This document shows positions 42,652 to 59,695 of a DNA stretch of 64,000 nt, in pieces. The position numbers were made by a program, and so were the translations under genes. The notes beneath the pieces are model-generated. The model saw only the letters and a list, made by a program, of their open reading frames with translations, was not told where the DNA came from and did no database searches. The stretch covers positions 271,079 through 335,078 of the forward strand of contig JAPPIK010000014.1 in assembly GCA_028820655.1 (NCBI GenBank), read 5' to 3'. The stretch's first letter is position 1. Every line of letters begins with the position of its first letter. This DNA is from Candidatus Poribacteria bacterium. GTDB taxonomy: Bacteria; Poribacteria; WGA-4E; JAJDTR01.

Positions 42652-44151
42652 GTGAAAAATACTAACTACCAATCCGTTTCTGTCGCCCTTGTTTTTGGTG
42701 TCATCTTTCTGCTGCTCCCCACGGTTGCAATTTCAGCCGAAAAGGGACATGATGCGACGCATGAAGGTGGCGCACATGCTCACGGCGAGCATCACGGAGT
42801 CAATGGCGCGGAACTGCCTCTCTGGAGCATAATTCCATTCTTGGGCATCTTGTTGTCGATCGCATTTTGGCAACTTATCGCACCGCACTTTTGGCATCAC
42901 AATTACGGAAAAATATCGCTCGCCTGGGCGCTTATTTTTGCTATACCCTACCTGATATTTTATCATGGGAGCGCGCTTTACGATATTCTGCACATCTATC
43001 TGATTGATTATATTCCGTTCATAATCTTGCTATGGGGATTGTTCACGGTTGCGGGCGGCATTGTGGTGCGCGGCACACTGCGCGGTACACCGGTTGTGAA
43101 CTTCGTTCTGCTGTTGATCGGTACCGCGATCGCGTCATGGATAGGGACAACCGGCGCCTCAATGTTGCTGATTCGGCCCCTCATTCGCGCCAACGCCTAT
43201 CGCAAAAACAAGACGCACCTCATTATCTTTTTCATCTTTCTGGTGAGCAACATCGGCGGCTCCCTGACACCGTTGGGCGACCCTCCCTTGTTCTTGGGAT
43301 TTCTGCACGGCGTGCCGTTTTTCTGGACCACGACGGCGCTGCTACCGCACATGCTATTCATCTGTGTGCTGCTGCTTGCGATATTCTTCATCGTGGATAC
43401 CGTCATGTTCAAGCGAGAGGGCGGCGTGGTTCCCGATGATGGCGAGAAAGAACCGATTCGGGTCGCGGGATTGTTTAATTTGATATTCCTCGGCGGAATT
43501 ATTGCCGGAGTGTTGATGAGCGGCACCTTTCAGTGGGGCGAGATCAACGTGTTGGGTGTACACGTCGCGTGGCAGAATATCCTGCGCGATCTGGCTATTG
43601 TCGCGATGGGGTTGCTCTCGTTGAAGTTTACTCCCTTCTCGGGCGCGCTGCGGCGTGAAAATCAGTTTGAGTGGGAACCGATTGCGGAAGTTGCCAAGTT
43701 GTTCGCTGGAATCTTCATGACAATCATCCCGGCGCTTGCGATTCTCAAAGCCGGGGAACAGGGGGCGCTAAGTGCGTTGATTCGCGCGGTGAAGGAGCCG
43801 TGGCACTATTTCTGGATCACCGGTGTTCTATCCAGTTTCCTCGACAATGCACCGACGTACCTGACATTCTTCAATACCGCACTCGGGAAACTCCATCTGA
43901 CGGAGGCGATGGCGCACAAAATACTTATCGGGGCGGCGGCGAATCCCGAATTCGTCAGGCTGCTGACCGCTATCTCTGTCGGTGCTGTGTTCATGGGTGC
44001 CAATACCTACATCGGGAACGCACCCAATTTTCTCGTCAGAGGAATTGCCGAGTCAAGCGGAATACGGATGCCAAGTTTCTTCGGATTCATGCTTTGGTCC
44101 GTCGGCATCTTGCTGCCGCTCTTTGTGGTTATAACTCTTGTGTTCTTTTAG
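42652..44151 (+). CDS. Ion-transporter-superfamily permease (ArsB/NhaD/CitMHS-like) with signal peptide and His-rich periplasmic N-terminus, inserted between nuoM and nuoN
   Basis: GTG start directly after nuoM stop; 'AEKGHDATHEGGAHAHGEHHG' after signal peptide; ~12 TM with duplicated hairpin-like 'GGSLTPLGDPP' / 'FLDNAPTYL' segments. Confidence 0.55.
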   Translation: MKNTNYQSVSVALVFGVIFLLLPTVAISAEKGHDATHEGGAHAHGEHHGVNGAELPLWSIIPFLGILLSIAFWQLIAPHFWHHNYGKISLAWALIFAIPYLIFYHGSALYDILHIYLIDYIPFIILLWGLFTVAGGIVVRGTLRGTPVVNFVLLLIGTAIASWIGTTGASMLLIRPLIRANAYRKNKTHLIIFFIFLVSNIGGSLTPLGDPPLFLGFLHGVPFFWTTTALLPHMLFICVLLLAIFFIVDTVMFKREGGVVPDDGEKEPIRVAGLFNLIFLGGIIAGVLMSGTFQWGEINVLGVHVAWQNILRDLAIVAMGLLSLKFTPFSGALRRENQFEWEPIAEVAKLFAGIFMTIIPALAILKAGEQGALSALIRAVKEPWHYFWITGVLSSFLDNAPTYLTFFNTALGKLHLTEAMAHKILIGAAANPEFVRLLTAISVGAVFMGANTYIGNAPNFLVRGIAESSGIRMPSFFGFMLWSVGILLPLFVVITLVFF

Positions 44152-44170: not shown

Positions 44171-45613
44171 ATGACGGTGCCTGTCATCAACTGGCACATG
44201 CTGATGCCCGAATTGGTCATTGTCCTGACGTTTGTCATCGTGATGGTTTTTGACCTGTTCAAGTCAATCCGGAAGTCGATTCTCGCTTGGGTGACCATTA
44301 TCGGCAGCGCAATCGCGTTATGGGCATCCGTAGAAATGCTCCATGCAGGGGTGAACGGGAGCCAGTTCAACGGCATGTTGGCCGTAGATCGTTTTTCGAT
44401 GTTTTTCAAAATCATCTTCCTTGTGTCAACAATTTTAGTATCGCTAATTTCCATCAATTATTTGGACCGAGGAGATAAGCGGCAAGGGGAATACTACGTG
44501 TTAATCCTCTTGGCGACACTGGGCATGATGTTGATGGCATCTGGCAACGAATTGATTGTAGTTTTCCTCGGGTTGGAGTTGATGTCGCTGTCGTTGTATG
44601 TGTTGGCAGGATATTTCCGCTCCGTGCAGGTATCCAGCGAAGCCGGGATGAAGTATCTATTGCTGGGCGCATTCGCCAGCGGGTTCTTCCTATACGGCAT
44701 CGCGCTGATATACGGCGGCGCCGGGACAACGAGCATTCCCGAGATTGCCTCGGTACTGGAAGACGGAGAAAAATCTCCATTGATGCTCGCTGGGATGTTC
44801 CTGCTAATTGTGGGGTTCGGTTTCAAAGTGGCTCTTGTGCCGTTCCACCAATGGGCCCCCGACGTATACGAAGGCGCGCCAACCACAATCGCCGCTTTCA
44901 TTTCGGCGGGACCAAAGGCAGCCGGCTTCGCCGCATTTCTCAGGATTTTCACGAGTGCACTGGAGAGCCTCCAACCGGAGTGGATTGTCGTGATTGTCAT
45001 TCTCGCGGCGTTAACGATGACCGTCGGAAACGTGATCGCGACAGCTCAAAGCAACATCAAACGAATGCTGGCCTATTCGAGCGTCGCGCACGCCGGTTAT
45101 GTGCTGGTCGCGTTAGCGGCGGCTAACAAAGATGGCATTTCCAGCGCCATGCTTTACCTGCTCGTCTACTGCGTGATGAATATCGGCGCATTTGCCGCGG
45201 TTATCCTTGCGACAACCGAGGATGGCGAAAATCTCAAAATCTCCGACTACGCCGGACTCGGGTTTCGGAAGCCGCTGCTTGCGTTGTTCCTGTCCATCAT
45301 GCTAGTGTCCCTTGCAGGGTTTCCGCCCACAGCCGGCTTCGTCGGAAAGTTTTACGTGTTCCGTTCCGCCGTGGATGCGGGCCACATTTGGTTAGTTGTG
45401 ATCGCGGCGATCAATACCGCAATTTCAGCGTTTTATTATCTTCGCGTCGTTGTGGTGATGTATATGCAGGAACCTGACGAAGAACTCGAATATCACGCAT
45501 ACCCGGGTCTACTGGTATTTACGCTTCTTCTCGCTACAATCGGAGTCGTTCTGATTGGGGTATTGCCTTCGTATTTCTTGGGGCCCGCCCAAATTAGCAC
45601 ACAGTTCTTCTAG
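44171..45613 (+). CDS. nuoN: NADH-quinone oxidoreductase subunit N
   Basis: 480 aa antiporter-like subunit; N-terminal pattern typical of NuoN. Confidence 0.9.
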   Translation: MTVPVINWHMLMPELVIVLTFVIVMVFDLFKSIRKSILAWVTIIGSAIALWASVEMLHAGVNGSQFNGMLAVDRFSMFFKIIFLVSTILVSLISINYLDRGDKRQGEYYVLILLATLGMMLMASGNELIVVFLGLELMSLSLYVLAGYFRSVQVSSEAGMKYLLLGAFASGFFLYGIALIYGGAGTTSIPEIASVLEDGEKSPLMLAGMFLLIVGFGFKVALVPFHQWAPDVYEGAPTTIAAFISAGPKAAGFAAFLRIFTSALESLQPEWIVVIVILAALTMTVGNVIATAQSNIKRMLAYSSVAHAGYVLVALAAANKDGISSAMLYLLVYCVMNIGAFAAVILATTEDGENLKISDYAGLGFRKPLLALFLSIMLVSLAGFPPTAGFVGKFYVFRSAVDAGHIWLVVIAAINTAISAFYYLRVVVVMYMQEPDEELEYHAYPGLLVFTLLLATIGVVLIGVLPSYFLGPAQISTQFF

Positions 45614-45642
45614 ACCAGGTTTCCACGGGCGCGAGTCGCAAT

Positions 45643-45939
45643 GTGCCAAATGTATTAACAATGGCTATGTTTAAGCGGAGTCCGGAAGAGTGGAGCAGCC
45701 TTGGTCTCGTGATGATTGGAAGCACGCTTGTATTTGCAATCGGCATCGGATCCGGATTGGGTTGGTGGATTGGCGGGAAGTTGGGTAATCAAAAGATCGG
45801 GCTAATCATCGGGTTTGTCGTCGGAACCGCGGCGGGTTTCAGGGAGATGTTTCGAACGGTGTCGCGCTGGAATCGGCGGATGGAGGAACAGGATCGGACA
45901 AATCGAATCCATGAAGATGATTCGGGAGAGGGTTCATAA
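45643..45939 (+). CDS. atpZ: AtpZ/AtpI-family small membrane protein preceding ATP synthase genes
   Basis: Two Gly-rich TM helices 'LGLVMIGSTLVFAIGIGSGLGWWIGG' / 'IGLIIGFVVGTAAGF'; position upstream of atpI-atpB. Confidence 0.6.
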   Translation: MPNVLTMAMFKRSPEEWSSLGLVMIGSTLVFAIGIGSGLGWWIGGKLGNQKIGLIIGFVVGTAAGFREMFRTVSRWNRRMEEQDRTNRIHEDDSGEGS

Positions 45940-45940
45940 G

Positions 45941-46360
45941 ATGAGTTCTCGGTCCCCATTCGAAGTAGATGACAATTTTCTTCGGCAAGTCTATCGATTG
46001 ACGGTAGTGTTAGGTGTCATCGGTACGGTGATTCTCTGGACGGTTTACGGCACGCCGGAAGGGTTAAGTTTCGCGATCGGCGGCTTTCTCAGTTTAAGCG
46101 CGATTTTATCGTTGGAGTACGTCGTTCGCCGCTTGGTTAAACCCGGTGGTCCATCGCGAGCCAAACGTTTGATCGGGTTCATTTTATTGGGTAAATACAC
46201 GGTGATTTTTGGAGGGTTTTATCTGTTGATGAAGACGGATTGGCTAAACGTCTATTCCCTCGCAGCCGGAATTGGCGTGGTACAACTTGTGATTATCCTT
46301 AAAGCCGTCAAACTCATGACTGGCATTCTATTCAGCGACAAGACAACCAAAGATACTTGA
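45941..46360 (+). CDS. atpI: ATP synthase protein I
   Basis: ~140 aa, four hydrophobic segments, located between atpZ and atpB; ATG right after atpZ stop (alternative ATG 45911). Confidence 0.6.
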   Translation: MSSRSPFEVDDNFLRQVYRLTVVLGVIGTVILWTVYGTPEGLSFAIGGFLSLSAILSLEYVVRRLVKPGGPSRAKRLIGFILLGKYTVIFGGFYLLMKTDWLNVYSLAAGIGVVQLVIILKAVKLMTGILFSDKTTKDT

Positions 46361-46370
46361 TGACATTGCA

Positions 46371-47276
46371 ATGAAAAAACACTGTTTGCTTTTCTTTGTT
46401 ACGGTTTTCGTTCTGTTTGGAGTTGGATTCGATTTTGGGTTTGCGGCAGACGATGCCCATGATTCCTCACACGATACTCAGAGCGAAGGGGAACATGGCG
46501 GCGGCGGAGCCCATCCCCACTATTCTTGGCTGCATCCGTTGTCCAAAATCATTCCGAACCATATTATTCCGGAACCCCTCGGCTGGCAGCAGCCGGACCT
46601 GATCCTCAATGCCTATTTCGTAGTGTTGGTTATCACCATCCTTTTCTTTTTCGGGACGCGAAAGATGAAACGACTCCCCGAAGGCAGAGGACAGACTTTG
46701 CTGGAGTTGTTTGTCGGCGGATTGATAAACTTCTTTGGTGGGATTTTGGGTGAACACGGGAAAAAATATGTCCCGTTTGTCGGATCCTACTTTATTTTTA
46801 TCCTGTTCCTAAACTATATTGGTCTAATTCCCGGCTTTCTATCTCCGACAGCGGATTTGAACACGACGGTCGCGCTTGGTATTTCCGCGTTAATCGGTGT
46901 TCATGTCATAGCTATCAAGGAAAACGGGATCATCGGTTATTTGAAGCATTTTGTTGGCGATCCGTGGTGGCTTGCGCCTTTGATGTTTCCATTGCACATT
47001 ATCGGAGAAATTGCGCGCGCCGGGTCGCTAGCAATTCGGCTCTTTGGAAATATTTTTGGCGAGGAATCAGTCATAATCAACTTGACCATCTTAGGGCTTG
47101 CAGTTCCGCACATTTTCGGTATGATACCTTGGGCGCCAATTCAGGTGCCCATGCTGTTTTTCGGACTATTTGGCGGATTTTTGCAGGCGCTTGTGTTCTC
47201 GATGTTGACATCAATCTACATCGTTACGTTCCTTGAGCATCATGACGAAGAGCATGGTGCGGAGGCACATCACTAA
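46371..47276 (+). CDS. atpB: F0F1 ATP synthase subunit a with signal-peptide-like N-terminus and His-rich periplasmic extension
   Basis: Conserved Arg in 'IGEIARAGSLAIRLFGN'; N-terminal 'AADDAHDSSHDTQSEGEHGGGGAHPHY'. Confidence 0.9.
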   Translation: MKKHCLLFFVTVFVLFGVGFDFGFAADDAHDSSHDTQSEGEHGGGGAHPHYSWLHPLSKIIPNHIIPEPLGWQQPDLILNAYFVVLVITILFFFGTRKMKRLPEGRGQTLLELFVGGLINFFGGILGEHGKKYVPFVGSYFIFILFLNYIGLIPGFLSPTADLNTTVALGISALIGVHVIAIKENGIIGYLKHFVGDPWWLAPLMFPLHIIGEIARAGSLAIRLFGNIFGEESVIINLTILGLAVPHIFGMIPWAPIQVPMLFFGLFGGFLQALVFSMLTSIYIVTFLEHHDEEHGAEAHH

Positions 47277-47362
47277 ATGATGAGCGGCTATTGCCGTTCG
47301 TTCACACTGTTCTTCAGTGTTTCAATCTCGGTAAAAGTTCACAAATCTAAGGAGGAAATTCG

Positions 47363-47680
47363 ATGATTTATCTTGCAGTTTTAGCTTTCGGGGTGGCGCT
47401 CGGTTTGCCGATTGCGGTAATCGCGGCATCGACCGCACAGGGAAAGGCAACGAGTACCGCTCTTGAGGGCATTGCACGCCAGCCCGAGGCTGCACCCAGG
47501 ATTCAGGTAGCGATGATTATCGGTTTGGCTCTTATTGAGTCTCTTGTCATCTATTCGCTGCTTATCTTTTTCCTGTTGATGGGAAAACTCCCGGACGTTA
47601 CGCCGGCTGAAGGGGAAAAGGTTAGCCCGCTCGAGAAGATTATGCAAGCAGCGCCGAGCGAAGAAAGTCACGACCATTAG
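47363..47680 (+). CDS. atpE: F0F1 ATP synthase subunit c with ~25-aa C-terminal tail ending SEESHDH
   Basis: Hairpin with 'ARQPEA' loop and carboxylate in 'LALIESLVIY'; ggagg RBS. Confidence 0.9.
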   Translation: MIYLAVLAFGVALGLPIAVIAASTAQGKATSTALEGIARQPEAAPRIQVAMIIGLALIESLVIYSLLIFFLLMGKLPDVTPAEGEKVSPLEKIMQAAPSEESHDH

Positions 47681-47761
47681 AAAAACATACTGCATGAAAC
47701 GTACTGCGCGATCTTTGCGGTCGCGCGCTATGTTTCAGCGCAAACGACATTGCGAGTCATC

Positions 47762-48361
47762 ATGAAAAGATTTGGAAATTTAGCCTTACTCATCTGCATT
47801 AACATATTGATTGCGGCCCCGTATTCGTTTGCTGCCGGCGGAGAATCCGGAGGCGGCGGGCTGTTGGGCGCCATCGGACTCGACCCCAAGACAGTCATCC
47901 TACAAGTGCTGGGCTTTCTCGTGGTTCTGTCGGTGCTCTGGAAATTCGTTTTTAGCCGCGTCGGCGGACTGTTGGATGAACGACAGAACGAGATAAACTC
48001 GCGCATGGAAAAACTGGAGACGGACCAACAGGAGTTGGATCGGTTGAACGCCGAAACTCGTCAACGATTGAACGAGATTGAAGCGGAGGGACAAGCCAAG
48101 ATTCAATCCGCCATCAATGAAGGAAATGCCGAGAGACAGCGTATTCTCGATCAGGCGCGTCAAGAAGCCTCTGCCGAACTTGATAGAGCACGGGCGGAGA
48201 TTCAGCGCGAAAAAGATGAGGCCATCCTCGAATTGCGGAGCACTGTCGCCGAGGTTGCGATTGACGCGGCGAGCAAAATAATCGATCAAACGCTAGATGC
48301 CGAGAGACATCAGCACATTATCGATGAATCAATTCGCCGCCTGCCTTCACATAGCGCTTGA
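47762..48361 (+). CDS. atpF: F0F1 ATP synthase subunit b
   Basis: N-terminal TM then long charged coiled-coil (Q/E/R/A-rich); alternative TTG start 47750. Confidence 0.8.
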   Translation: MKRFGNLALLICINILIAAPYSFAAGGESGGGGLLGAIGLDPKTVILQVLGFLVVLSVLWKFVFSRVGGLLDERQNEINSRMEKLETDQQELDRLNAETRQRLNEIEAEGQAKIQSAINEGNAERQRILDQARQEASAELDRARAEIQREKDEAILELRSTVAEVAIDAASKIIDQTLDAERHQHIIDESIRRLPSHSA

Positions 48362-48501
48362 TGCTTTAGAATATTTGCCCGGAAGTTAATACACACTCGA
48401 GAAAAGCCGTAAGCAAGATGCCGGATGCCGTCAGTCTGCATGAAAGACGATCTTACGGAAGAATGTCATCACATGTCACTGTATATCGGAGCGTATAACC
48501 G

Positions 48502-49041
48502 ATGAGAGATGTTCGGATTGCCAAACCATACGCGCAGGCGTTGTACGATGCGGCGGCGGAGCAGGATGCTTTGGATCGCATCGTGGAGGATGCCAACCAA
48601 GTCCTGAGCTTGGCGCAAGAATCGGAAGATTTTGAAGGGTTCCTGACCAATCCGATTCTGTCGCCGCAGTTCAAGAGCGAGATGTTTCAGCAGCTCCTGT
48701 CGGAATTCATTCATCCGCTCACTCTGAACTTTCTGTCACTTCTGGCATCGAAACAGCGAGAAAGGTTCCTCGTGGCAATCTTACGGGCATTTTTGGAACT
48801 CGTCGATTTGAAAGCGGGACGTCTGGTTGCGCAGGTGACGTCTGCGGCTCCGCTCAGCGAGGCGCAGAAAGCTAGTCTTGTACAACACCTCAGCGATTAT
48901 TCCGGTGCCGAAGTGAGACTTGATTTGAGCGAAGATAGTGAGATCAAAGGCGGAATTGTCGTGCGGCTAGGCGACACGGTATTTGATGGAAGCGTCACGA
49001 CACAGTTACGGCGGCTACGATCGCTGCTTGCTAGAGGATAG
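48502..49041 (+). CDS. atpH: F0F1 ATP synthase subunit delta (OSCP)
   Basis: 'YA.ALY..A' N-terminus and C-terminal 'IKGG..VR.GD...DGS' typical of delta. Confidence 0.8.
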   Translation: MRDVRIAKPYAQALYDAAAEQDALDRIVEDANQVLSLAQESEDFEGFLTNPILSPQFKSEMFQQLLSEFIHPLTLNFLSLLASKQRERFLVAILRAFLELVDLKAGRLVAQVTSAAPLSEAQKASLVQHLSDYSGAEVRLDLSEDSEIKGGIVVRLGDTVFDGSVTTQLRRLRSLLARG

Positions 49042-49091
49042 ACCGGCAAGCAAAAGCAAGTTTGCTGTCGAATGAGGGGAGAAAATAGCTC

Positions 49092-50621
49092 ATGGCAAGG
49101 GAAGTTAGACCCGATGAAGTTTCAAATATACTAAAGCAACAATTGCTGCAATTCAATCAACAAGTAGACGTGTATGATTCCGGGACGGTGTTGGATGTCG
49201 GTGACGGAATCGCTCGCGTGCACGGGCTTGCCAATGTGATGGCGAGCGAGATGATTGAATTTCCGAATGACGTATTCGGCATGGCTTTCAATTTGGAAGA
49301 GGACAACGTCGGTTGCGTGCTTTTCGGCGAAGACAAGCTGATTCACGAAGGCGACATCGCCAAACGGACCAATCGATTGCTTGAGGTGCCGGTCGGGGAG
49401 GAGTTGCTCGGTCGAGTCGTCAATGCGCTGGGGCAGCCGATCGACGGCAAAGGGGAACTCGGTACCAGCGAGACACTACCCGTGGAACGAAAGGGTTTGG
49501 GCATTGTGCAGCGTCAGCCTGTTAGCGAGCCGCTGTATACCGGTTTGAAAGCAATCGACAGCATGACGGCTATCGGGCGAGGGCAGCGTGAGTTGATCAT
49601 CGGTGACCGGCAAACGGGCAAAACCGCAATCCCAATTGATACAATCATCAACCAGAAAAACACCGACGTGTTCTGCATTTACGTGGCGATCGGCCAGAAG
49701 GGATCTACGGTTGCCCAGGTTGTGACAACGCTTGAGCAGCACGGCGCGATGGACTACACCATTGTTGTCTCGGCGCCTGCCAGTGAACCGTCGCCGCTGC
49801 AATATCTTGCGCCGTATACCGGCACATCCATGGGAGAATTCTTCCGTGACAGGGGGCAGCATGCGCTGATCATTTACGATGATCTAACCAAGCACGCTTG
49901 GGCGTACCGGCAGATGTCCCTGCTCTCACGTCGACCGCCGGGGCGAGAAGCCTATCCCGGCGATGTCTTCTACCTGCACTCAAGATTGCTCGAACGCTCG
50001 GCGAAACTGAGTGACGAATTGGGAGCCGGTTCATTGACTTCGTTGCCTATAATCGAGATTTTTGAGGGCGACTTGACAACATACATTCCAACCAACGTGA
50101 TTTCGATTACGGACGGACAGATATACCTAACGTCGGAACTGTTCAATCAAGGTGTCCGTCCTGCGATTGATGTCGGTACGTCGGTTTCCCGTGTGGGTGG
50201 GGACGCACAGACTAAGGCTATGAAAGCCGATGAGGTGGCAGGCACGCTGAAGCTGGATTTAGCTAGTTTCCGTGAGGTCGCCGCCTTTGCTCAGTTTGGT
50301 TCCGATCTTGATGCATCCACGCAATCGCAACTTCGCCGCGGAGAGCGATTGGTGGAACTGCTTAAGCAGCCGCAATACGCGCCTATGCCCGTCGAGAGGG
50401 AGATTGTCTCGATATTCTGCGGATCGACGGGATATTTGGACGACGTTGAAGTGGCAGATGTTGAAAGGTTTGAGTCCGAATTTCTTGCCTACATGGATAG
50501 AAATCATGAAGGACTTCTGAAGGAGATTGCAGAAACGGGTGTTTTGAGTGATGACCTTATTGAGAGTCTTCATGACGCGGTGAAGAGTTTCAAGGAGCAG
50601 TTCCAAGTGAATGAGGCATAG
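49092..50621 (+). CDS. atpA: F0F1 ATP synthase subunit alpha
   Basis: P-loop 'GDRQTGKTA', 'YDDLTKHA' and overall alpha signature; 509 aa. Confidence 0.97.
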
Positions 50622-50835
50622 AGGTGACGAGGTGAAACTAAAAATCATTCTGCATGAAGCGGAAGAGGGAGGATATTGGGCTGAAGTCCCGTCAATTGAG
50701 GGATGTGTGAGTCAAGGTGAGACGCTTGACGACTTGATTGAGAACATCTCTGAGGCGGTAGAAGGCTGTTTATCTGTGGATATCAGTGAACGCGATATCG
50801 GCGAGAAAGATACAGTCATGGAGATAGCCGTTTGA
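50611..50835 (+). CDS. hicB: HicB-family antitoxin (UPF0150 / RNase-H-like fold only, no DNA-binding domain)
   Basis: '[39 protein letters not shown]' matches HicB N-domain pattern; start ATG 50611 (overlapping atpA stop) or GTG 50632. Confidence 0.6.
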
Positions 50836-51038
50836 AATCCCTAACGGGAAAAGAGTTTTGCCGCTTATTGAATAAGAAGGGATGGGAATTGAAGCGTGTA
50901 AAGGGCAGTCATTACATTTTCGCCAAAGGTACGCCTTCTGCTCGAATCTCAGTTCCTGTTCACGGGAATAAGACTCTCAAGCAGGGCTTGCAGCGGCATC
51001 TTATGAAAATAGCTGGTATTGATGAAAGTGAATTGTAG
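50832..51038 (+). CDS. hicA: HicA-family mRNA interferase toxin
   Basis: 'LTGKEFCRLLNKKGWELKRVKGSHYIF...ISVPVH' with conserved catalytic His in GSH; TTG start overlaps hicB stop by 4 nt. Confidence 0.7.
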   Translation: MKSLTGKEFCRLLNKKGWELKRVKGSHYIFAKGTPSARISVPVHGNKTLKQGLQRHLMKIAGIDESEL

Positions 51039-51059
51039 CAAGGAGTTCAGGGGTTTATA

Positions 51060-51926
51060 ATGGCAACGTTACGAGAGATCAGACGACGGATTGCGAGTGT
51101 TGAGAACATCAAACAAGTAACAGAAGCGATGCGAGTGGTTGCAGCGGCGAGGTTACGCCGCGCCCAAGAGAACATCTTGGCGACACGGCCGTTCGCCGAG
51201 AAGTTTAACGCGATTTTGAGCCACTTGATTGCGCAGATTGAGAATCCCACCCATCCGTTGCTAGAGAATAGGGAATTAAAAAACGTCTGTCTCATCTCTA
51301 TCAGCGCCGATCGCGGATTGTGCGGCAGTTTCAATAGTAATGTGATTCGTACCACGACGGAGAGAGCGCAGCATTATCAAGATGCCGGTGCCGCCGTGAA
51401 GATCATCTGTGTAGGCAGACGTACCCGGGACTATTTTGCACGGCGGGACTATGAGGTCATCGCCGAATATGTCAACATATTTCGAGATCTCAAGTTCGAA
51501 TCCGCTGTGGACATCGTTCATGAATTTGAGCATCTTTATACTGCACTGCAGATTGACAGGGTAGAGGTAATCTACAATAACTTCAAGTCCGCTATACTGC
51601 AGACGGTGCTCGTTGAACAGCTATTGCCGCTTACCCCGGAAGCACCGACGGGTGACGAACTCTTTCTCGATTATCTGTATGAGCCGGGACAGGAGGAAAT
51701 CTTCCAGTCGGTGTTGGCGAAACACCTGAACATGCAGATGTGGAAGGTATTGCTGGATTCCAACGCCGCGGAGCAGGCGGCGCGGATGGCAGCCATGGAA
51801 AACGCAACACGTAACGCCACGGATCTGATTGACGAGTTGATTTTGCAGCGCAACCGGGCGCGACAAACCCAGATTACGACGGAGATCTCCGAGATTGTGA
51901 GCGGTGCAGCGGCATTGGAGGGTTAG
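51060..51926 (+). CDS. atpG: F0F1 ATP synthase subunit gamma
   Basis: 'MATLREIRRRIASVENIKQVTEAM' N-terminus and C-terminal helix 'ITTEISEIVSGAAAL'. Confidence 0.9.
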   Translation: MATLREIRRRIASVENIKQVTEAMRVVAAARLRRAQENILATRPFAEKFNAILSHLIAQIENPTHPLLENRELKNVCLISISADRGLCGSFNSNVIRTTTERAQHYQDAGAAVKIICVGRRTRDYFARRDYEVIAEYVNIFRDLKFESAVDIVHEFEHLYTALQIDRVEVIYNNFKSAILQTVLVEQLLPLTPEAPTGDELFLDYLYEPGQEEIFQSVLAKHLNMQMWKVLLDSNAAEQAARMAAMENATRNATDLIDELILQRNRARQTQITTEISEIVSGAAALEG

Positions 51927-51927
51927 T

Positions 51928-53553
51928 GTGCTAGTAATGTTAAAAACTTTTGTCCGTTCTTGTATTGTTTTCACGTTTTTGGCTATTGGGTGCTTGTCCG
52001 CATTCGGTCACGGCGACGTTCTCCCTCTGTTGGAGGATGTCAACAATGACGGCGTCGTGAACATCTTGGACCTCGTCATTGTGGCAAACGCCTTGGGGCA
52101 GCCCGTGGATCGGGATATGGAGCAGAATCCGGATGTCAATCGCGATGGCGTCACTAACATCTTGGATCTCGTTCGAGTTGCCAACCGATTAGGCGAACGC
52201 GCGGCAGTTGACAACTCAACCTATCACGATTTTCAGGACTACATTTTCAACAAGAGTTGTACCGCAAGCTACTGTCACGCAGCTCCGACTAACGCCGGAA
52301 ATTTAAACCTCACAAGCGGTGTTTCATACGAAGATTTGGTTGGCCGCGTGCCGCAAAACCTTGCGGCGGCGTCTGCCGGGATGAAGCGCGTTGATCCGGG
52401 CAATCCAGACAATAGTTTTCTGTTGACGAAGCTCGTAGGTCCGTCCACTCCGGCAGAAGGAGGCCGCATGCCCTTGGGGGCGGGACCGCTCCATAGCGGA
52501 AAGATAGATGCCATTCGAAAATGGATTGCCGCGGGAGCACCTCGGAATGAAAAACTAACCGGCATCGGCGATCTAAGCCTGTTACGCGACCCGCTTGAAT
52601 CCTTTGAACCGCTCCCGCCGCCGCCGCCCGGAGAAGGTTATCAGCTTCATATGCCGGCTTTTAGAATTGAACCCGGTACGGAGCGGGAAGTCTTCTACGA
52701 TATGCAGATCACAGACGCAGCGGGACAGCCGTTGCAGGAGGATATCTTCGTCAACAAGTACGAGATCGCGTATCCGACCGGCAGTCATCACTTCATCCTG
52801 TATCGGTTGACTGAAAAGGCGTTGGAAGATGACCTACGTAATGTCGGAGTGACACCGGGAGTCGGGGTGAATACGCAAGATAAGTTCCGAGTGTTGGATC
52901 CTGCGAATCCGCAAGCGCTCGGAAATTTTGGCAAGCACCGCGTCTACAACACGGGCACCCAAACCGGCGAAAAGACGGTTTTTCAATTTCCCCAAGGCGT
53001 GGCTCTGCGGCTTGCGGGAGACACAATTTACGACCTGAACGCACATTTCGTGAATCTGTTGGGCACGGAAGCGATCGAGGGAGAGGTTTACGTCAATTTC
53101 TACACCATCCCTCCGGAAGCGGTTGAGCATGAAGCAGTGGAACTTTTCTCCGCCAATACCGACATTTTTGTTCCGCCGGGAACAACGCGTGTGGCAAAGA
53201 GGGACGAGACCGTGAGGGAGGAGATTGAACGCCGCGGTAACGATCCGAACACCGTGTTGAATCTCCTTATGATTACGTCTCATATGCACCGACACGGCGA
53301 ATTGTTTGAGATTTTTCAGATGTCAACGGGGAGTTTGCTCCATCGAAGTCTGGCTTACGACGATGCGCCCATCACGGTGTTCGACCCGCCGTTGGTTCTC
53401 GGCGCGGACGACGGCATCACCTACGAATGCACACATAATAATTATGATCGGGATGTTCCACTTACTTTCGGATTTACGTCCGAGGATGAGATGGCAATAA
53501 TTATGGGGTATTACTATCCCACAACCGAGAGTGTGGATACCTCAAGTGAGTGA
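51928..53553 (+). CDS. Secreted multidomain protein: signal peptide + 2 dockerin-type Ca-binding repeats + Planctomycete-cytochrome-C-like (PSCyt1-like) domain with Cx4CH + PHM/DBH-like type-2 copper monooxygenase domain
   Basis: Repeats 'DVNNDGVVNILDLV' / 'DVNRDGVTNILDLV'; 'IFNKSCTASYCH...GNPDNSFLLTKLVG...MPLGAGPL...IRKWIAAGAP'; Cu sites 'GSHHF'...'NAHF' and 'HMHRHG' ... 'SEDEMAIIMGYYYP'; start GTG 51928 or ATG 51937. Confidence 0.55.
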   Translation: MLVMLKTFVRSCIVFTFLAIGCLSAFGHGDVLPLLEDVNNDGVVNILDLVIVANALGQPVDRDMEQNPDVNRDGVTNILDLVRVANRLGERAAVDNSTYHDFQDYIFNKSCTASYCHAAPTNAGNLNLTSGVSYEDLVGRVPQNLAAASAGMKRVDPGNPDNSFLLTKLVGPSTPAEGGRMPLGAGPLHSGKIDAIRKWIAAGAPRNEKLTGIGDLSLLRDPLESFEPLPPPPPGEGYQLHMPAFRIEPGTEREVFYDMQITDAAGQPLQEDIFVNKYEIAYPTGSHHFILYRLTEKALEDDLRNVGVTPGVGVNTQDKFRVLDPANPQALGNFGKHRVYNTGTQTGEKTVFQFPQGVALRLAGDTIYDLNAHFVNLLGTEAIEGEVYVNFYTIPPEAVEHEAVELFSANTDIFVPPGTTRVAKRDETVREEIERRGNDPNTVLNLLMITSHMHRHGELFEIFQMSTGSLLHRSLAYDDAPITVFDPPLVLGADDGITYECTHNNYDRDVPLTFGFTSEDEMAIIMGYYYPTTESVDTSSE

Positions 53554-53644
53554 AAGAAAAATTCGGAAAGTTGCAATCTAAACGGTTGTGAAACTATTCT
53601 TAACGATTGATGTGCCAAGTAATTTAGTCAAAGGAGGACAACCA

Positions 53645-54466
53645 ATGGTACTTGGACCAAGAGGGACAATTCTCGTCATTCTGATGGCGTTGATAGCTTT
53701 GAGCGGGTGTGAGCAAGGCACCAATATCTTGGCGGACGCGCTGTCGCCCGAGGATCCGGAAATAGAGGCGACGCCGATTGAGGAAATATCGATGGAGGAC
53801 CCTCCATCCGAACCCATTATGGAAACTGTAGACGCGGAGTCTGTACCGGTCAAAATGGTGTGGTTAGTCGACTATCCGCTAGGCGGAAAGGAGGAGTATG
53901 TTGCATGGATCGCGTCCGTAGCGCCAATGCTGCTAGCTCCGGAAGAGCTTAATCGGGCGGCGTCTTACGACAACGTTGACGGATCCAATCCGCACCGCCT
54001 TGTCGAGTTCGAATTTGACAGTTTTGCCGATCTCGCGCACTATCTGAACCGTCCCGAAATTGCTGCGGTCTCTGCCGATATGCCGAATCACACCAGTAGC
54101 GCGAGTACGCACATATTTATCCAGCGCGGCGATTATTCGAAAAACGAGAGCACGAGCCGTAAGGTTAAAACCGTTTACTTAGTTGACTATCCGCTTGGAG
54201 GAAAAACTGAGTACCTGGAATGGATTGCCGCTATAGCGCCGATGCTGCAAGCCCCCGAAGAGGTAAAGCGGATAGCATCTTACGACAACTATTATGGCGT
54301 AACTCCACACCGGTATGTCGAGTTTGAGTTCGATAGCTATGAAGAAGCGAATACGTACCAAGAACTCCCGTACGTGCAGCAGCATGTTAATGCGGAGTTG
54401 CCTAATCGAACCAGCCGCACGTCTGTCCTGACCTTTGAGTTGCGATCCGATTACGTCAACGAATAG
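53645..54466 (+). CDS. Lipoprotein with two tandem ~100-aa repeats (dimeric alpha/beta-barrel, ABM/Dabb-like by pattern)
   Basis: aggagga RBS, lipobox 'ALSGC'; repeat 1 'VKMVWLVDYPLGGKEEYVAWIASVAPML..PEE..RAASYDN...PHRLVEFEFDS', repeat 2 'VKTVYLVDYPLGGKTEYLEWIAAIAPML..PEE..RIASYDN...PHRYVEFEFDS'. Confidence 0.5.
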   Translation: MVLGPRGTILVILMALIALSGCEQGTNILADALSPEDPEIEATPIEEISMEDPPSEPIMETVDAESVPVKMVWLVDYPLGGKEEYVAWIASVAPMLLAPEELNRAASYDNVDGSNPHRLVEFEFDSFADLAHYLNRPEIAAVSADMPNHTSSASTHIFIQRGDYSKNESTSRKVKTVYLVDYPLGGKTEYLEWIAAIAPMLQAPEEVKRIASYDNYYGVTPHRYVEFEFDSYEEANTYQELPYVQQHVNAELPNRTSRTSVLTFELRSDYVNE

Positions 54467-54581
54467 TCGAGGGCGTTGTCGTTACGCCGTAGGCATTAAC
54501 TAGGAAGAGATGCTGGAAGCGGATGATCGGGCTAGTGTTTACAGCGCGAGTAGGAGGAGACTTTTGAGCACATCGAAGCCG

Positions 54582-54950
54582 ATGGTCATCAATCAGTCGG
54601 AGCAGTCTTGGGAGGGCTGGGATGATGCCGAACTCGCGGACAAAAGTGCGATTCGCTGGAAAATCCTTATATCCGGCGAACGCGGATTAGTCACCGGTAT
54701 AGCGGAGTTTCCGGTCGGCACTCGACTTCCCCTTCACCACCACGAACCCCCGGAGACCTATTACATCGTCAGCGGGAAGGGAACCATGGAGATGGACGGT
54801 CACAAAACAGACATCGGACCTGGATCGGCGGTCTACATCCCGTCCAATGCGAAACACGCTGTATGGTGCACGGGAAATGAACCATTAGTATTCGTATTTT
54901 CCTTCGCGAGTGATCGATTCGACCAGATAGTCTATCACTTTGACGAATAA
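54582..54950 (+). CDS. Cupin domain protein (RmlC-like cupin)
   Basis: Cupin motifs 'G.RLPLHHHEPPETYYIVSGKG' and 'G..VYIPSNAKHAV'; alternative TTG start 54564 after aggagg. Confidence 0.7.
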   Translation: MVINQSEQSWEGWDDAELADKSAIRWKILISGERGLVTGIAEFPVGTRLPLHHHEPPETYYIVSGKGTMEMDGHKTDIGPGSAVYIPSNAKHAVWCTGNEPLVFVFSFASDRFDQIVYHFDE

Positions 54951-54984
54951 GCGATTCGCGGAGGGGGCGCCAAAAAATCAACAC

Positions 54985-55293
54985 ATGCTTTACGATGTTG
55001 ACAAACAGATTCAAGAGGCAATCGATCGGGGAGACTTTAAGGATCTGCGCGGAAAGGGAAAGCGGCAGGAGTTAGAAGAGAACGCTTATGTTCCGCGCGA
55101 AACTCGGATTGTTAACCAGATGCTTAAAGAAAACGGATTTGCGCCGCGTTGGATAGAGGTAGACAAAGAAATCCGTGCCGAGCGTGAACAATCCGGAAAG
55201 CTGCTGCGGAATATCAAACGGCGGCGCCGACATTTAGAAGCAGCGATTCACGCCCAACCACTCGACATCGACAGGGTACGTCGAGTTTTTTAA
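54985..55293 (+). CDS. DUF1992 (DnaJ-homolog-subfamily-C28-like) protein
   Basis: 'IQEAIDRGDFKDLRGKGKRQELEENAYVP...IVNQMLKENGFAPRWIE' matches DUF1992 pattern; alternative TTG start 54940. Confidence 0.5.
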   Translation: MLYDVDKQIQEAIDRGDFKDLRGKGKRQELEENAYVPRETRIVNQMLKENGFAPRWIEVDKEIRAEREQSGKLLRNIKRRRRHLEAAIHAQPLDIDRVRRVF

Positions 55294-55391
55294 CTTGAAC
55301 GTGCGCGGGCGCTAGCGGCATACGTAAGCCAACTGAAGAGGATTAATCAAAAGATTCTCAGATATAATCTTACAGCGCCAGGGCGCGGTAG

Positions 55392-56927
<1,536 letters not shown>

Positions 56928-57001
56928 GTTGCATGTAAAAGCGATGGTCGGTCTCCAGCATCGACCACTCAACATTGGATCCCTATTTTACGTGAATAGC
57001 C

Positions 57002-57409
57002 ATGCTTGAAAGAAGATTTCACCTCGAAATCCGAACACCGCAGAAACTCATATATGATGGCGACGTAAGCAGCGTCAAAGCGCCCGGGGAACTGGGCTCA
57101 TTTGAAATCCTTCCCGGTCACATTCCTTTTTTGACGGTTTTGGAAACGGGCGAGATTCGCATCCGAGAGACTGATACACCCCAGTCACTCGCGGTCAGCG
57201 GCGGGGTTTTCGAGGTATTGCGAACAGGGGTTACGGTATTGTCCGACACGGCGGAATGGGCGCATGAAATTGATGTTGAACGGGCAGAGACAGCTCTTCA
57301 ACGCGCTCAAGAGCATCTGGCTTCGGGAGATTCGGGGATCAACCGAGGACGCGCGGAAGCCGCATTGGAGCGCGCCAAGAATCGGGTAAAGGTCGCCAAT
57401 TCCTCGTAA
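57002..57409 (+). CDS. atpC: F0F1 ATP synthase subunit epsilon
   Basis: 'SVKAPGELGSFEILPGHIPFLT.L..GE' beta-sandwich signature and C-terminal helical hairpin. Confidence 0.9.
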   Translation: MLERRFHLEIRTPQKLIYDGDVSSVKAPGELGSFEILPGHIPFLTVLETGEIRIRETDTPQSLAVSGGVFEVLRTGVTVLSDTAEWAHEIDVERAETALQRAQEHLASGDSGINRGRAEAALERAKNRVKVANSS

Positions 57410-57527
57410 ACACTGCGCTGCGAACTATCGTAACCTGCGTATTCCGACTTTGGGCGGCCGCCATGTATATGTAGAGTGGCATCGCCCCACTATCACTGCT
57501 TTATCCCGTCACGCATTACGCATTGTC

Positions 57528-58280
57528 TCACACCATCCGCCGGTAGTGCTTCGTTAATTCCTCCAAATTATCCTCATCATCCGTGCTGTTCCCATTAGAC
57601 GACACCTCCATCTGGCGTTCAAAGAATTCTTTTGTGGTGCGATAGATTTCCCGCAAATCCGATCGGCTGGGACGATGACCCGAAAGATGGATCATGTCGC
57701 ACGTCCGAAGAATTTCCCCAACATGATCCGCCACCGAGCTTGTTAGATCGTGCGGAAGCGATCCCAAGATCTCCCCGGTTGTGGCGTCGAGCGTCTTAAC
57801 ACCGTATTTCTGCTCAACATAGCGCTTCACGATTGAGGAGATTCTGTTGTAATACTCGTGGAACTCTCTATGAGAATGATGAGAGGCAATTTGATTCAAC
57901 TCGCGAAGCGACAAGGCTTCTGGCGTATCCCCTTGGGCGGCTGAGGGAGTTGGCGGCCCCCTTTCCGTCTCTAGTTGTGAAGCCTGCGGCGGTGCCGCCG
58001 ATCTTCTTGGATTGGTGGGCACACCACTCGGGAGGTTAAACCGGGGCATGCGGCGGACACCGTGGGAGGGTCGGTTGCGCCTCTTTCCGATCCATGAGTA
58101 TATTCCCACGCCAATAGCGGCGAAAACCGCCATCCACACAACGACCCAAACGACTGCGGAGAGTAACCCGGACGAACGCACGTCGGGATCTGTCTCTTGG
58201 GCAAACAACCCCGCGTTTCCGGATATCAGAAGTATGAGCAATATTAAGCCGCAAGGGGCAAGCCTCGTTAATCGTTGCAC
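57528..58280 (-). CDS. Hypothetical bitopic membrane protein (signal peptide, one TM, ~170-aa cytoplasmic domain), co-oriented and overlapping with the sigma-54 activator
   Basis: N-terminal 'LILLILLISGNAGLFAQ' then TM 'LLSAVVWVVVWMAVFAAIGVGIYSWI'; 13-nt overlap with upstream regulator. Confidence 0.45.
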   Translation of the reverse strand: MQRLTRLAPCGLILLILLISGNAGLFAQETDPDVRSSGLLSAVVWVVVWMAVFAAIGVGIYSWIGKRRNRPSHGVRRMPRFNLPSGVPTNPRRSAAPPQASQLETERGPPTPSAAQGDTPEALSLRELNQIASHHSHREFHEYYNRISSIVKRYVEQKYGVKTLDATTGEILGSLPHDLTSSVADHVGEILRTCDMIHLSGHRPSRSDLREIYRTTKEFFERQMEVSSNGNSTDDEDNLEELTKHYRRMV

Positions 58281-59695
58281 AAGTCGTATTCCTTGATTTT
58301 CCTAAAGATGGTTCTCTTGTTGACGCCCAATATATTGGCTGCCTTGGCTCGGTTGTTTCCGACGTAGTCGAGTGTTGCTCGTATGGCTTCCTCTTTGATT
58401 TCCTCCATCGACATTCCGACTTCAACATTCAAACGGCGGTCGGAAGCCACAGCCGGATCTGCATTCACTGCTGTCGGCGCAGAGACGACAATGGGGGTGC
58501 CGATTCCCGTGAACTTGAGAACGCGCTCCGGAAGATCCGCCAAACCCAACTCGCGGCTGTTCGACATCACGACCATGCCTTCGATACAGTTTCTGAGGTC
58601 GCGCACGTTCCCGGGCCAATCGAATTTCATGAGTGCTCTTAACGCATCCGGGGAGATGAATTTGGACGCTTTGCGGTTCTCTTGGCAGAATTCCTCGATG
58701 AAGGTCTTGACCAGAAGCGGTATATCTCCTTTCCGCTCGCGAAGAGGCGGCAAATATATCGAAATCACATCAAGGCGATCGTACAGATCCGCCATAAATT
58801 TGCCCTCTTCGACCGCTTTCTCCAGATCTCGATTTGTTGCGCAGACGACCCGGACGTCCACCTTTACAACCTCATTACCGCCGACGCGGTGAAATTCCCT
58901 TTCTGCCAACACCCTCAGCAGCCTAGCCTGGTTCGGCAAACTCAACTCGCCGATTTCATCAAGCAGCAGTGTGCCGCCGTTAGCCGATTCAAATTTTCCT
59001 TTTCGTTGCTGATCGGCGCCGGTGAATGCACCCCGTTCATATCCAAAGAGTTCCGATTCTGCAAGACTCTCGCTCAGCGCGGCGCAATTGAAGACGACAA
59101 GCGGGCCTCTGCGTAAACTTCGATAATGGATGGCGCGGGCGACTAACTCTTTTCCGGTGCCGCGTTCACCGCGAATCATCACGGTCGATTTCGTCGGAGC
59201 GACCTGAGCAATGATCTCCCGGACCTCCTGGATGTGCTGGGAGTGGCCGGTAAGACGGAGCAAGCCCTCTCTTTCATCAATCTGGGACTGTAATTGACGG
59301 TTTTCTGCGGTAAGGCGCTGATTTTCAAGTATTTTGTGTAGAAGCGCCTTCAAATGGATGGGATTCGGGGGCTTCGGCAAAAAGTAGCTTGCTTCATGAT
59401 GGAGCATCGCCTTTATGCCTACATCTGTTTGCAGGACATCATGAGTGGTCATGAATACCACGCCGACGTCGGGATACTTTTGCCGAGCGGCTTCCATCAG
59501 TTGCAACCCGTCAAGCCGGTCTGCCTTTAGCGGCGCAACCAGAATGTCAATCCCTAGCCGATCCACCCGATCAAGCGCTTCATACATGTTCCGAGTGACG
59601 ACAAGACGCAATCCTTCACCTTCAAGCGCGCGGCATACGGTTTCACGCTCCCTTTGATCCGGATTGACGACGAGGACGGTTTTCTGTTGGCTCAT
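58268..59695 (-). CDS. Sigma-54-dependent Fis-family transcriptional activator with degenerate (non-phosphorylatable) receiver domain
   Basis: AAA+ Walker A 'GERGTGKE', 'GAFTGA' sigma-54 contact motif, C-terminal Fis-type HTH; receiver has 'VVNPDQ' and 'ILVAPLKADRLDG' in place of DDD / phospho-Asp. Confidence 0.85.
   Translation of the reverse strand: MSQQKTVLVVNPDQRERETVCRALEGEGLRLVVTRNMYEALDRVDRLGIDILVAPLKADRLDGLQLMEAARQKYPDVGVVFMTTHDVLQTDVGIKAMLHHEASYFLPKPPNPIHLKALLHKILENQRLTAENRQLQSQIDEREGLLRLTGHSQHIQEVREIIAQVAPTKSTVMIRGERGTGKELVARAIHYRSLRRGPLVVFNCAALSESLAESELFGYERGAFTGADQQRKGKFESANGGTLLLDEIGELSLPNQARLLRVLAEREFHRVGGNEVVKVDVRVVCATNRDLEKAVEEGKFMADLYDRLDVISIYLPPLRERKGDIPLLVKTFIEEFCQENRKASKFISPDALRALMKFDWPGNVRDLRNCIEGMVVMSNSRELGLADLPERVLKFTGIGTPIVVSAPTAVNADPAVASDRRLNVEVGMSMEEIKEEAIRATLDYVGNNRAKAANILGVNKRTIFRKIKEYDLCND

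Follow-up and report, generated by a model that had tools for sequence, protein, structure and literature searches.

Genes between atpG and atpD in Poribacteria: a probable lineage-specific, stepwise expansion of the F1Fo ATP synthase operon

In a 64,000-nt stretch of DNA from a Candidatus Poribacteria bacterium (contig JAPPIK010000014.1 of assembly GCA_028820655.1, positions 271,079 to 335,078; hereafter the window), the F1 gamma gene atpG (51060-51926; Pfam ATP-synt E 7e-96) and the F1 beta gene atpD (55518-56927) are separated by a 3,591-nt gap that holds four genes, all on the plus strand. The first open reading frame (ORF), ORF1 (51937-53553), encodes a secreted protein with a dockerin and a PHM/DBH-like copper monooxygenase part, and ORF2 (53645-54466) encodes a lipoprotein with two fused ferredoxin-like (ABM/Dabb) repeats. 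They are followed by a gene for a DddK-like cupin (54510/54564-54950; Pfam Cupin_2 E 5.5e-18) and by a DUF1992 gene (54985-55293; DnaJC28 conserved domain, E. coli YhdN family; DJC28_CD E 2e-20) that is shortened by a nonsense codon. An earlier annotation made from the sequence alone (the first-pass annotation) had reported four co-oriented accessory genes splitting atpG from atpD, and the ORF list and the Pfam scan agree with it. We concluded that the F1Fo operon of Poribacteria has probably been enlarged step by step at the gamma|beta junction, in a lineage-specific and vertically inherited way, and that the added genes travel as passengers. The inserted genes code for proteins and are under selection; they form no functional module, nor are they ATP-synthase subunits.

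Content of the atpG-atpD junction across Poribacteria

The window proteins were located by tblastn in 80 Poribacteria loci, one genome per species (AtpG 75-99% identical, many of the loci on closed chromosomes), and the ORFs of each junction were inventoried. Both atpG and atpD are held by 79 of the loci. The two genes are at least 49 nt and at most 5.2 kb apart (median 1,068 nt), and the distance exceeded 300 nt in 74/80 loci; six of the 80 species have atpG and atpD adjacent (49-190 nt). Occupancy was counted from the tblastn matches because greedy ORF picking at times took antisense shadow ORFs over the DUF1992 or cupin gene (clusters C5 and C6). Among 79 species, the DUF1992 gene was found in the junction of 61, a member of the ORF2 family in 29, the cupin gene in 28 and ORF1 in 10. 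All four genes occupy the junction in 8/79 species, the closest relatives of the window, and none of the four is present in 12/79. The layout thus recurs in sister species, and the comparison proposed in the first-pass annotation shows that the window is no lone exception. Literature searches returned no description of this atp layout in Poribacteria.

The order of the inserted genes also differs between lineages. It is ORF1-Dabb-cupin-DUF1992 in the genus of the window, cupin-ORF1-DUF1992 in locus L039 and cupin-DUF1992-Dabb(-Dabb)(-TPP) in the sister clade; locus L013 is without the cupin and DUF1992 genes. The TPP gene encodes a thiamine pyrophosphate (TPP)-dependent enzyme of about 598 aa and was found in the junction of 14 species (e.g., L025, 12821-14620); its best NCBIfam match is benzoylformate decarboxylase-like and far under the cut-off. 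Other occupants of the junction include a Cu/Zn superoxide dismutase gene (L011, 14823-15476), an unknown gene pair (L053, L058 and L077) and a gene for a DUF4258 protein (L041).

When the junction contents were placed on a quick neighbour-joining (NJ) tree of AtpA+AtpG+AtpD with a midpoint root, DUF1992 appeared on both sides of the root and was missing from one subclade, and the other inserted genes fell in nested clades. Outside the genus of the window, those homologues of ORF1 and ORF2 whose neighbourhoods were examined lie in unrelated contexts. Because of this nested distribution, the differing gene order and the unrelated contexts of the ORF1 and ORF2 homologues, we concluded that the four genes represent neither a module nor one insertion event. 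The single cassette of the first-pass annotation does not hold: the four genes came in at several levels of the tree and stand in different orders.

Assembly support and selection on the inserted genes

A 20.9-kb stretch of the window is identical to ENA scaffold ROBB21-1_SAMN13943214 scaffold_15, and the closest genomes are all Poribacteria metagenome-assembled genomes (MAGs). An identical AtpG with ORF1 downstream was found in seven contigs from several samples, and assemblies made from different samples, in ENA, NCBI and Logan, show the same junctions. The eight sister Poribacteria species with the four-gene layout include closed long-read chromosomes. Misassembly or a chimeric join, against which the first-pass annotation had advised a check, was ruled out by the independent assemblies and the closed chromosomes of sister species.

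We also looked for traces of a mobile origin. A repeat search found no flanking direct or inverted repeats, only the internal repeat of ORF2 and the atpA/atpD paralogy. No integrase, transposase or recombinase family was found among the Pfam matches of the four genes or of the other junction genes. The GC content of the inserted genes (0.47-0.56) is like that of the flanks, and in five species pairs their synonymous divergence (dS) was close to the dS of the atp genes on either side. All close homologues of the inserted proteins searched are from Poribacteria. The junction content follows the AtpA+AtpG+AtpD tree, so the tree-discordant distribution of a genomic island was not found.

The ratio of nonsynonymous to synonymous divergence (dN/dS) was 0.06-0.23 for the inserted genes overall: 0.06-0.14 for ORF1, ORF2 and the cupin gene (ORF1 0.08-0.11, cupin 0.06-0.13) and about 0.2 for the DUF1992 gene. 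The atp genes gave 0.005-0.03, with one atpC comparison higher. These values indicate that the inserted genes are real and under selection, and that they are less constrained than the atp genes. Signs of dispensability were also observed, namely a split ORF1 in three sister species (L008, L010 and L015), the losses in L013 and the nonsense codon in the DUF1992 gene of the window.

Transcription and translation signals in the junction

Promoters and terminators were sought by sigma70-like and terminator consensus scans, which may not fit Poribacteria. In the window, promoter- and terminator-like sites were no commoner than expected by chance, and no sigma70-like match was found at 55300-55518. 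The intergenic folds of the inserted block were no more stable than those of shuffled sequences, the atpD leader forms no stable hairpin (z 0.62), and an Rfam scan of 45000-58500 found no element. The sole terminator-like match in the inserted block (55268-55284; a 5-pair stem at the nonsense codon, local fold z -3.1) was not counted because the sequence codes in relatives, in the DUF1992 frame.

Across the relatives, a terminator-like site was found within 250 nt upstream of atpD in three of the 74 loci with an occupied junction, and downstream of atpC in 30 of 73. Past atpC the density of such sites was 1.9/kb, compared with 0.30/kb in the junction and 0.24-0.69/kb within the atp genes. A sigma70-like match ahead of atpD was seen in 12/74 loci vs. 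11.9% in shuffles. All junction genes of recognisable family lie on the atp strand. The first-pass annotation had left two options, that the inserted genes are transcribed through or that they bring promoters and terminators of their own and re-wire atpDC expression. Neither signal is enriched before atpD, so that read-through is the better supported of the two; promoters and terminators stand at background there, and nothing supports re-wiring.

The genes of the block are closely spaced, with 10 nt from the atpG stop to the ATG of ORF1, 91 nt between ORF1 and ORF2, 43-97 nt between ORF2 and the cupin gene, and 34 nt between the cupin and DUF1992 genes. The 10-nt spacer after atpG is a further point in favour of read-through. 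An overlap of the cupin stop with the DUF1992 start had been reported for the window; it would need a TTG start at 54940. The start kept in relatives, as judged from the alignment, is the ATG at 54985, and the two genes are therefore separated by the 34-nt gap and do not overlap. Ahead of atpD lies a 59-nt leader (55459-55517) with a strong ribosome-binding site, GGAAAGGAAG. The sequence ...TTTACGGAAAGGAAGAyAAACGATG before atpD is conserved in the genus of the window, and an equivalent A/G-rich ribosome-binding site is present in all 78 relatives.

Two short JGI contigs, L091 (Ga0138398_1125170) and L096 (Ga0310342_100429949), span atpG-DUF1992-atpD. Should either of them be a metatranscriptome assembly, it would show co-transcription directly.

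The DUF1992 gene and its nonsense allele in the window

The DUF1992 protein matches DJC28_CD with 73.1 bits (cut-off 27), and an intact relative matches NCBIfam PRK10203 (E 1.9e-9); a PDB sequence search returned nothing for it. In the window, an in-frame TAA at 55291-55293 (GAA to TAA) replaces codon 103 of 157, leaving 102 codons. In relatives this codon is Glu103 in 58/59 (GAA in 46, GAG in 12), and TAA occurs in this strain only. The intact 157-aa frame runs on to 55458, so the copy in the window is not full-length; the untranslated remnant of the C-terminal 54 codons lies in frame past the TAA (55294-55458). Its translation, LERARALAAYVSQLK...ECPSL*, aligns to the C-terminus of intact 157-aa relatives, which is rich in invariant residues. 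A second assembly, Logan SRR10996926, carries this truncated allele as well. Annotators should be aware that the DUF1992 gene of the window is a nonsense allele.

Like E. coli YhdN, the Poribacteria protein matches DJC28_CD and PRK10203. It differs from YhdN in its length of 157 aa with a conserved extra C-terminal region, and the window copy is truncated. The gene also lies in a different place, in the atp operon in Poribacteria and next to zntR in the case of yhdN (PMC12356324). YhdN is reported to be a member of the RpoH heat-shock regulon, and deletion mutants show a heat and nutrient-stress phenotype (PMC12356324). The eukaryotic homologue DNAJC28 has been listed among mitochondria-related genes (PMC8774259).

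When metagenomes were scanned with the DUF1992 alignment as query, eight contigs carried copies of at least 45% identity, and all of them show atpG-DUF1992-atpD where the contig reaches. A further 72 more distant metagenome DUF1992 loci have no atp gene nearby, though many of these contigs are short. In a protein search with the DUF1992 of the sister clade, all matches were at least 80% identical. The linkage of DUF1992 to the atp genes is Poribacteria-wide, yet Poribacteria-specific in this sample. Literature searches found no link of DUF1992 or DNAJC28 to ATP synthase and no account of the linkage in Poribacteria.

Predicted products of ORF1, ORF2 and the cupin gene

ORF1 encodes 538 aa from the ATG at 51937; an alternative GTG start lies at 51904. 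At the N-terminus a signal peptide precedes a dockerin of type I (Pfam Dockerin_1 E 5.8e-12; PDB dockerins E 1.3e-5), in which two DVNxDGxxNILD repeats are visible. The Cu2_monoox_C model matches ORF1 with E 1.7e-6 and 28.1 bits (cut-off 23), and the Pfam model of the N-terminal catalytic domain gave no match. In the AlphaFold model the mean confidence (pLDDT) is 60.6 overall and mostly 65-90 for residues ~220-538. Foldseek aligned the C-terminal ~315 residues of this model with DBH (4zel) and PHM (3mll/1phm) in the PDB at E ~1e-11 over ~315 columns, with TM-scores normalised to the target of 0.63-0.67. As modelled, the C-terminal part has two beta-sandwich domains and appears to resemble a complete two-domain PHM/DBH catalytic core. 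The residues H284, H285, H370, H449, H451, M519, C108, C113, H114 and M178 are invariant among 31 homologues. Judged by motif order and not by residue-level superposition, H284/H285/H370 would be the CuH ligands and H449/H451/M519 the CuM ligands. The two-domain fold and the invariance of both copper-site motifs (HH...H and HxH...M) are shared with the PHM/DBH copper type II ascorbate-dependent monooxygenases. Unlike these, the protein is bacterial and secreted, has a type I dockerin at its N-terminus as well as a Cys-x4-Cys-His region, and is only 14-16% identical to PHM.

The middle region of ORF1, with pLDDT of ~30, holds the invariant C-x4-C-H and a Met. This is not the CXXCH of a c-type cytochrome, and the cytochrome models were sub-threshold on ORF1 (PSCyt1 E 0.065; TIGR03806 E 4e-4 and 19.6 bits vs. 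a cut-off of 313). Of the first-pass description of ORF1, the secreted, dockerin and copper-monooxygenase-like parts agree with the present analysis and the cytochrome-like part has weak support. The two ORFs into which ORF1 is split in three sister species (L008, 10845-12494; L010, 10842-12493; L015, 10842-12493) are either the result of pseudogenisation or of indel errors in long-read assemblies.

In other Poribacteria, homologues of ORF1 with 61-66% identity lie outside the atp operon in a neighbourhood of the order SDR-GT2-ORF1-MetH/MTHFR. In L087 (8001-11295) and L088 (8001-9659) the ORF1-type dockerin/PHM-like gene stands between a GT2 glycosyltransferase gene and a homocysteine S-methyltransferase/MTHFR fusion gene, with a tandem duplicate in L087. 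Compared with the otherwise identical NCBI MAG contig JAPPFS010000377.1 (L005), the window shows seven single-nucleotide differences clustered at 52616-52657, in the Pro-rich linker of ORF1.

ORF2 encodes 273 aa. Its N-terminus, MVLGPRGTILVILMALIALSG-C22, is a signal peptide with a lipobox (...LSGC22), and by inspection C22 does not vary among homologues and L19 and G21 hardly do, as in lipoproteins. The protein contains two repeats of ~100 aa that are 57% identical (E 8e-39), with a corresponding DNA repeat (53848-54026 and 54163-54341). The model (pLDDT 80.5) shows a fused pair of ferredoxin-like alpha+beta-barrel domains. Its Foldseek matches, at E 4e-13 to 1e-8, are putative monooxygenases (3f44 and 3mcs), the anthrone-oxidase-like 5f9p, PenE and chlorite dismutase. 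Pfam Dabb scored 24.5 bits, slightly below the cut-off of 25, and a sequence search of the PDB returned nothing for ORF2. The fused two-repeat barrel is like the dimeric alpha+beta-barrel proteins of the ABM/Dabb type (cofactor-free monooxygenases, chlorite-dismutase-like), with TM-scores normalised to the target of 0.6-0.72. Unlike them, it is anchored as a lipoprotein on the outside of the cytoplasm; it shares 8-13% identity with them, and no catalytic residues are assignable.

The cupin gene probably starts at the TTG at 54564, which gives a protein of 128 aa. It matches Pfam Cupin_2 with 64.9 bits and DMSP_lyase (PF16867) with 31.9 bits vs. a cut-off of 27, and in the PDB it matches DddK (5tfz/6a53) at E ~2e-18. 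In the alignment with 6a53/5tfz, LHHHEPPETYY pairs with LHYHSPAEIYV and NAKHA with NAEHA. DddK, the Pelagibacter cupin dimethylsulfoniopropionate (DMSP) lyase, thus has counterparts of the H-x-H-x3-E-x-Y and NAxH motifs and of the C-terminal Tyr at the aligned positions, so that the metal ligands and the catalytic Tyr would correspond, as predicted from the sequence. The protein is unlike DddK in that the generic Cupin_2 model outscores DMSP_lyase and that the gene lies within the atp operon of a sponge symbiont.

Export signals among the four inserted genes were found in ORF1 and ORF2 only. The cupin and DUF1992 proteins, being without them, are presumably cytoplasmic, and the extracytoplasmic redox enzyme set that the block had been suggested to encode is not upheld.

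The atpA-atpG junction and the remainder of the operon

The suggestion that the atp operon is an insertion hotspot was borne out at a second position. The atpA-atpG junction exceeds 300 nt in 20/81 loci, compared with 74/80 for atpG-atpD, 3/79 for atpH-atpA and 4/79 for atpD-atpC. In the window it is occupied by hicB (50611-50835; Pfam HicB_lk_antitox E 2.1e-7) and hicA (50832-51038; HicA_toxin E 2.5e-18), both on the plus strand, and there is an 11-nt overlap between the ATG of hicB and the stop of atpA. hicB and hicA lie side by side, and both Pfam scores are above the cut-offs; a toxin-antitoxin pair is predicted. The same junction in relatives is empty (9-230 nt) or holds hicBA or a gene for a ~150-aa 23S_rRNA_IVP protein (PF05635; L003, 4823-5128; L007, L014 and others), so that hicBA alternates with the 23S_rRNA_IVP gene. 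In L003 and L004 the two are present together.

The other atp genes of the window are also on the plus strand. An AtpZ/AtpI-like pair (45643-46360) stands ahead of atpB, atpE, atpF and atpH (46371-49041), followed by the F1 alpha gene atpA (49092-50621; Pfam ATP-synt_ab plus the N and C domains), the upstream border of the first variable junction. AtpD matches Pfam ATP-synt_ab_N, ATP-synt_ab and ATP-synt_VA_C and is called as 469 aa in L001. The operon ends with the F1 epsilon gene atpC (57002-57409; Pfam ATP-synt_DE_N and ATP-synt_DE), and the next gene (57528-58280, minus strand) is convergent. Downstream of the true atpC, tblastn gave additional partial matches to the helical C-terminal portion of AtpC in L080 (13539-13709 and 14737-14877) and also in L046, L051, L061, L070, L074 and L094.

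Upstream of the atp genes lies nuoN (44171-45613, plus strand). A CitMHS-family transporter gene (499 aa, 42652-44151) stands between two Proton_antipo_M (nuoM-/nuoN-like) genes directly upstream of the atp operon, and seems to be another instance of an accessory gene within a core respiratory operon.

Discussion

The window retains all subunit genes in the canonical B-E-F-H-A-G-D-C order on one strand (45643-57409), as in the atpIBEFHAGDC operon of the E. coli/Bacillus type. It differs from that operon in the 3.6 kb and four genes between atpG and atpD, and in the hicBA pair that parts atpA from atpG. The probable course of events would be as follows. DUF1992 would have come to lie between atpG and atpD prior to the divergence of the Poribacteria sampled, and the junction may then have become a tolerated docking site at which unrelated genes piled up stepwise. 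The DddK-like cupin and the tandem alpha/beta-barrel lipoprotein, in many species also the TPP enzyme, would have joined in one large clade, and the secreted PHM/DBH-like copper monooxygenase would have come last, in the genus of the window, with local reshuffling of the gene order. We infer that the inserted genes are carried as passengers by read-through from the atp promoter. The output of atpD and atpC would be kept up by their own strong ribosome-binding site, and the subunit ratios would therefore be set at translation.

Several points weigh against this course of events. The placement of DUF1992 as ancestral is inferred from a quick NJ tree with a midpoint root. Co-transcription, as predicted here, rests on consensus scans, and Poribacterial signals may not fit such patterns. 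Conserved A/T-rich stretches that are specific to clades lie shortly before atpD. An example is AATATAAATAATTGATGGAAAGAGAG, ~40 nt upstream of atpD in L016-L036 (the sister clade), whatever gene precedes; it might act as a leader or processing site, or as a promoter that was not recognised. Finally, the presence of DUF1992 at one position in 61/79 species under purifying selection exceeds the expectation from pure neutral hitch-hiking, and a functional tie is possible.

Part of this evidence could be read as a split operon, with atpBEFHAG plus passengers as one unit and atpDC under its own promoter as another, resembling atp1 and atp2 of cyanobacteria and chloroplasts. In these, atp1 ends in gamma and atp2 consists of beta-epsilon; in cyanobacteria the two stand at separate loci with separate promoters. 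The breakpoint in Poribacteria is the same gamma|beta junction, a gap of up to 5.2 kb is long for read-through, and the conserved sequence of the sister clade stands immediately before atpD regardless of the preceding gene. Against this, the halves in Poribacteria remain at one locus and on one strand, and the consensus scans show no terminator or promoter signals between them: sigma70-like matches before atpD are at the level of shuffles (with none at 55300-55518 in the window), and terminators are not enriched there (3/74; 0.30/kb). The six species with 49-190 nt between atpG and atpD indicate that the ancestral state was one unit, and we consider a split operon unlikely. Somewhat less probable is a functional tie of DUF1992 to the ATP synthase, for example as a helper of F1 assembly or quality control that is kept for co-expression, with the other genes as later passengers. 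The occurrence of DUF1992 at this exact junction in 61/79 species and on both sides of the root is consistent with such a tie, as are its retention in 8/8 metagenome contigs with copies of at least 45% identity where the contig reaches, its dN/dS of ~0.2, the RpoH control and deletion phenotype of YhdN (PMC12356324) and the mitochondrial listing of DNAJC28 (PMC8774259). But the gene is dispensable: 18/79 species, among them a whole subclade, do not have it in the junction, and the nonsense codon of this strain strips invariant C-terminal residues; these losses and the nonsense allele weaken the proposed role in F1 assembly. In addition, none of the 72 distant metagenome loci, many on short contigs, is near atp genes, and the literature searches gave no link to ATP synthase. 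More speculative again, and in our opinion improbable, is that DUF1992, as the bacterial counterpart of the domain conserved in mitochondrial DNAJC28, helps to assemble or repair the F1 ATP synthase in connection with stress, and that the junction later drew further passengers through strong uninterrupted transcription.

The two remaining explanations concern the origin of the block as a whole. Four unrelated accessory genes, a toxin-antitoxin pair 1 kb upstream and a junction content that varies by species might suggest a horizontally acquired island or mobile cassette inserted into the atp operon as one unit. This is very improbable, as there are no repeats, mobility genes or shift in composition, dS equals that of the flanks, close homologues are all from Poribacteria, and the content tracks the host phylogeny and was built in steps. 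As the window comes from a MAG, a chimeric contig or other misassembly at the edge of atpG or of atpD would be conceivable, but the same junctions in ENA, NCBI and Logan assemblies and in closed chromosomes of sister species, together with the spacing of only 10 nt between atpG and ORF1, leave it a negligible chance. We therefore prefer the stepwise, vertically inherited expansion of the operon.

Few gene clusters of bacteria are as conserved as the atp operon, and this phylum-wide case shows its flexibility, with up to five unrelated genes (5 kb) tolerated at one junction. The build-up can be traced over ~80 species and offers a natural experiment on subunit ratios in an interrupted operon. 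Three uncharacterised Poribacteria proteins, the dockerin-bearing PHM-like monooxygenase, the DddK-like cupin and the tandem ABM-fold lipoprotein, are of possible relevance to sponge symbiosis. The phylum-wide linkage of DUF1992 to the atp genes is the sole new lead, and a testable one, for DUF1992/DnaJC28, a domain without a molecular function; if DUF1992 were indeed an F1 helper, the linkage would provide, from genomic context, a first clue to what this widespread family does.

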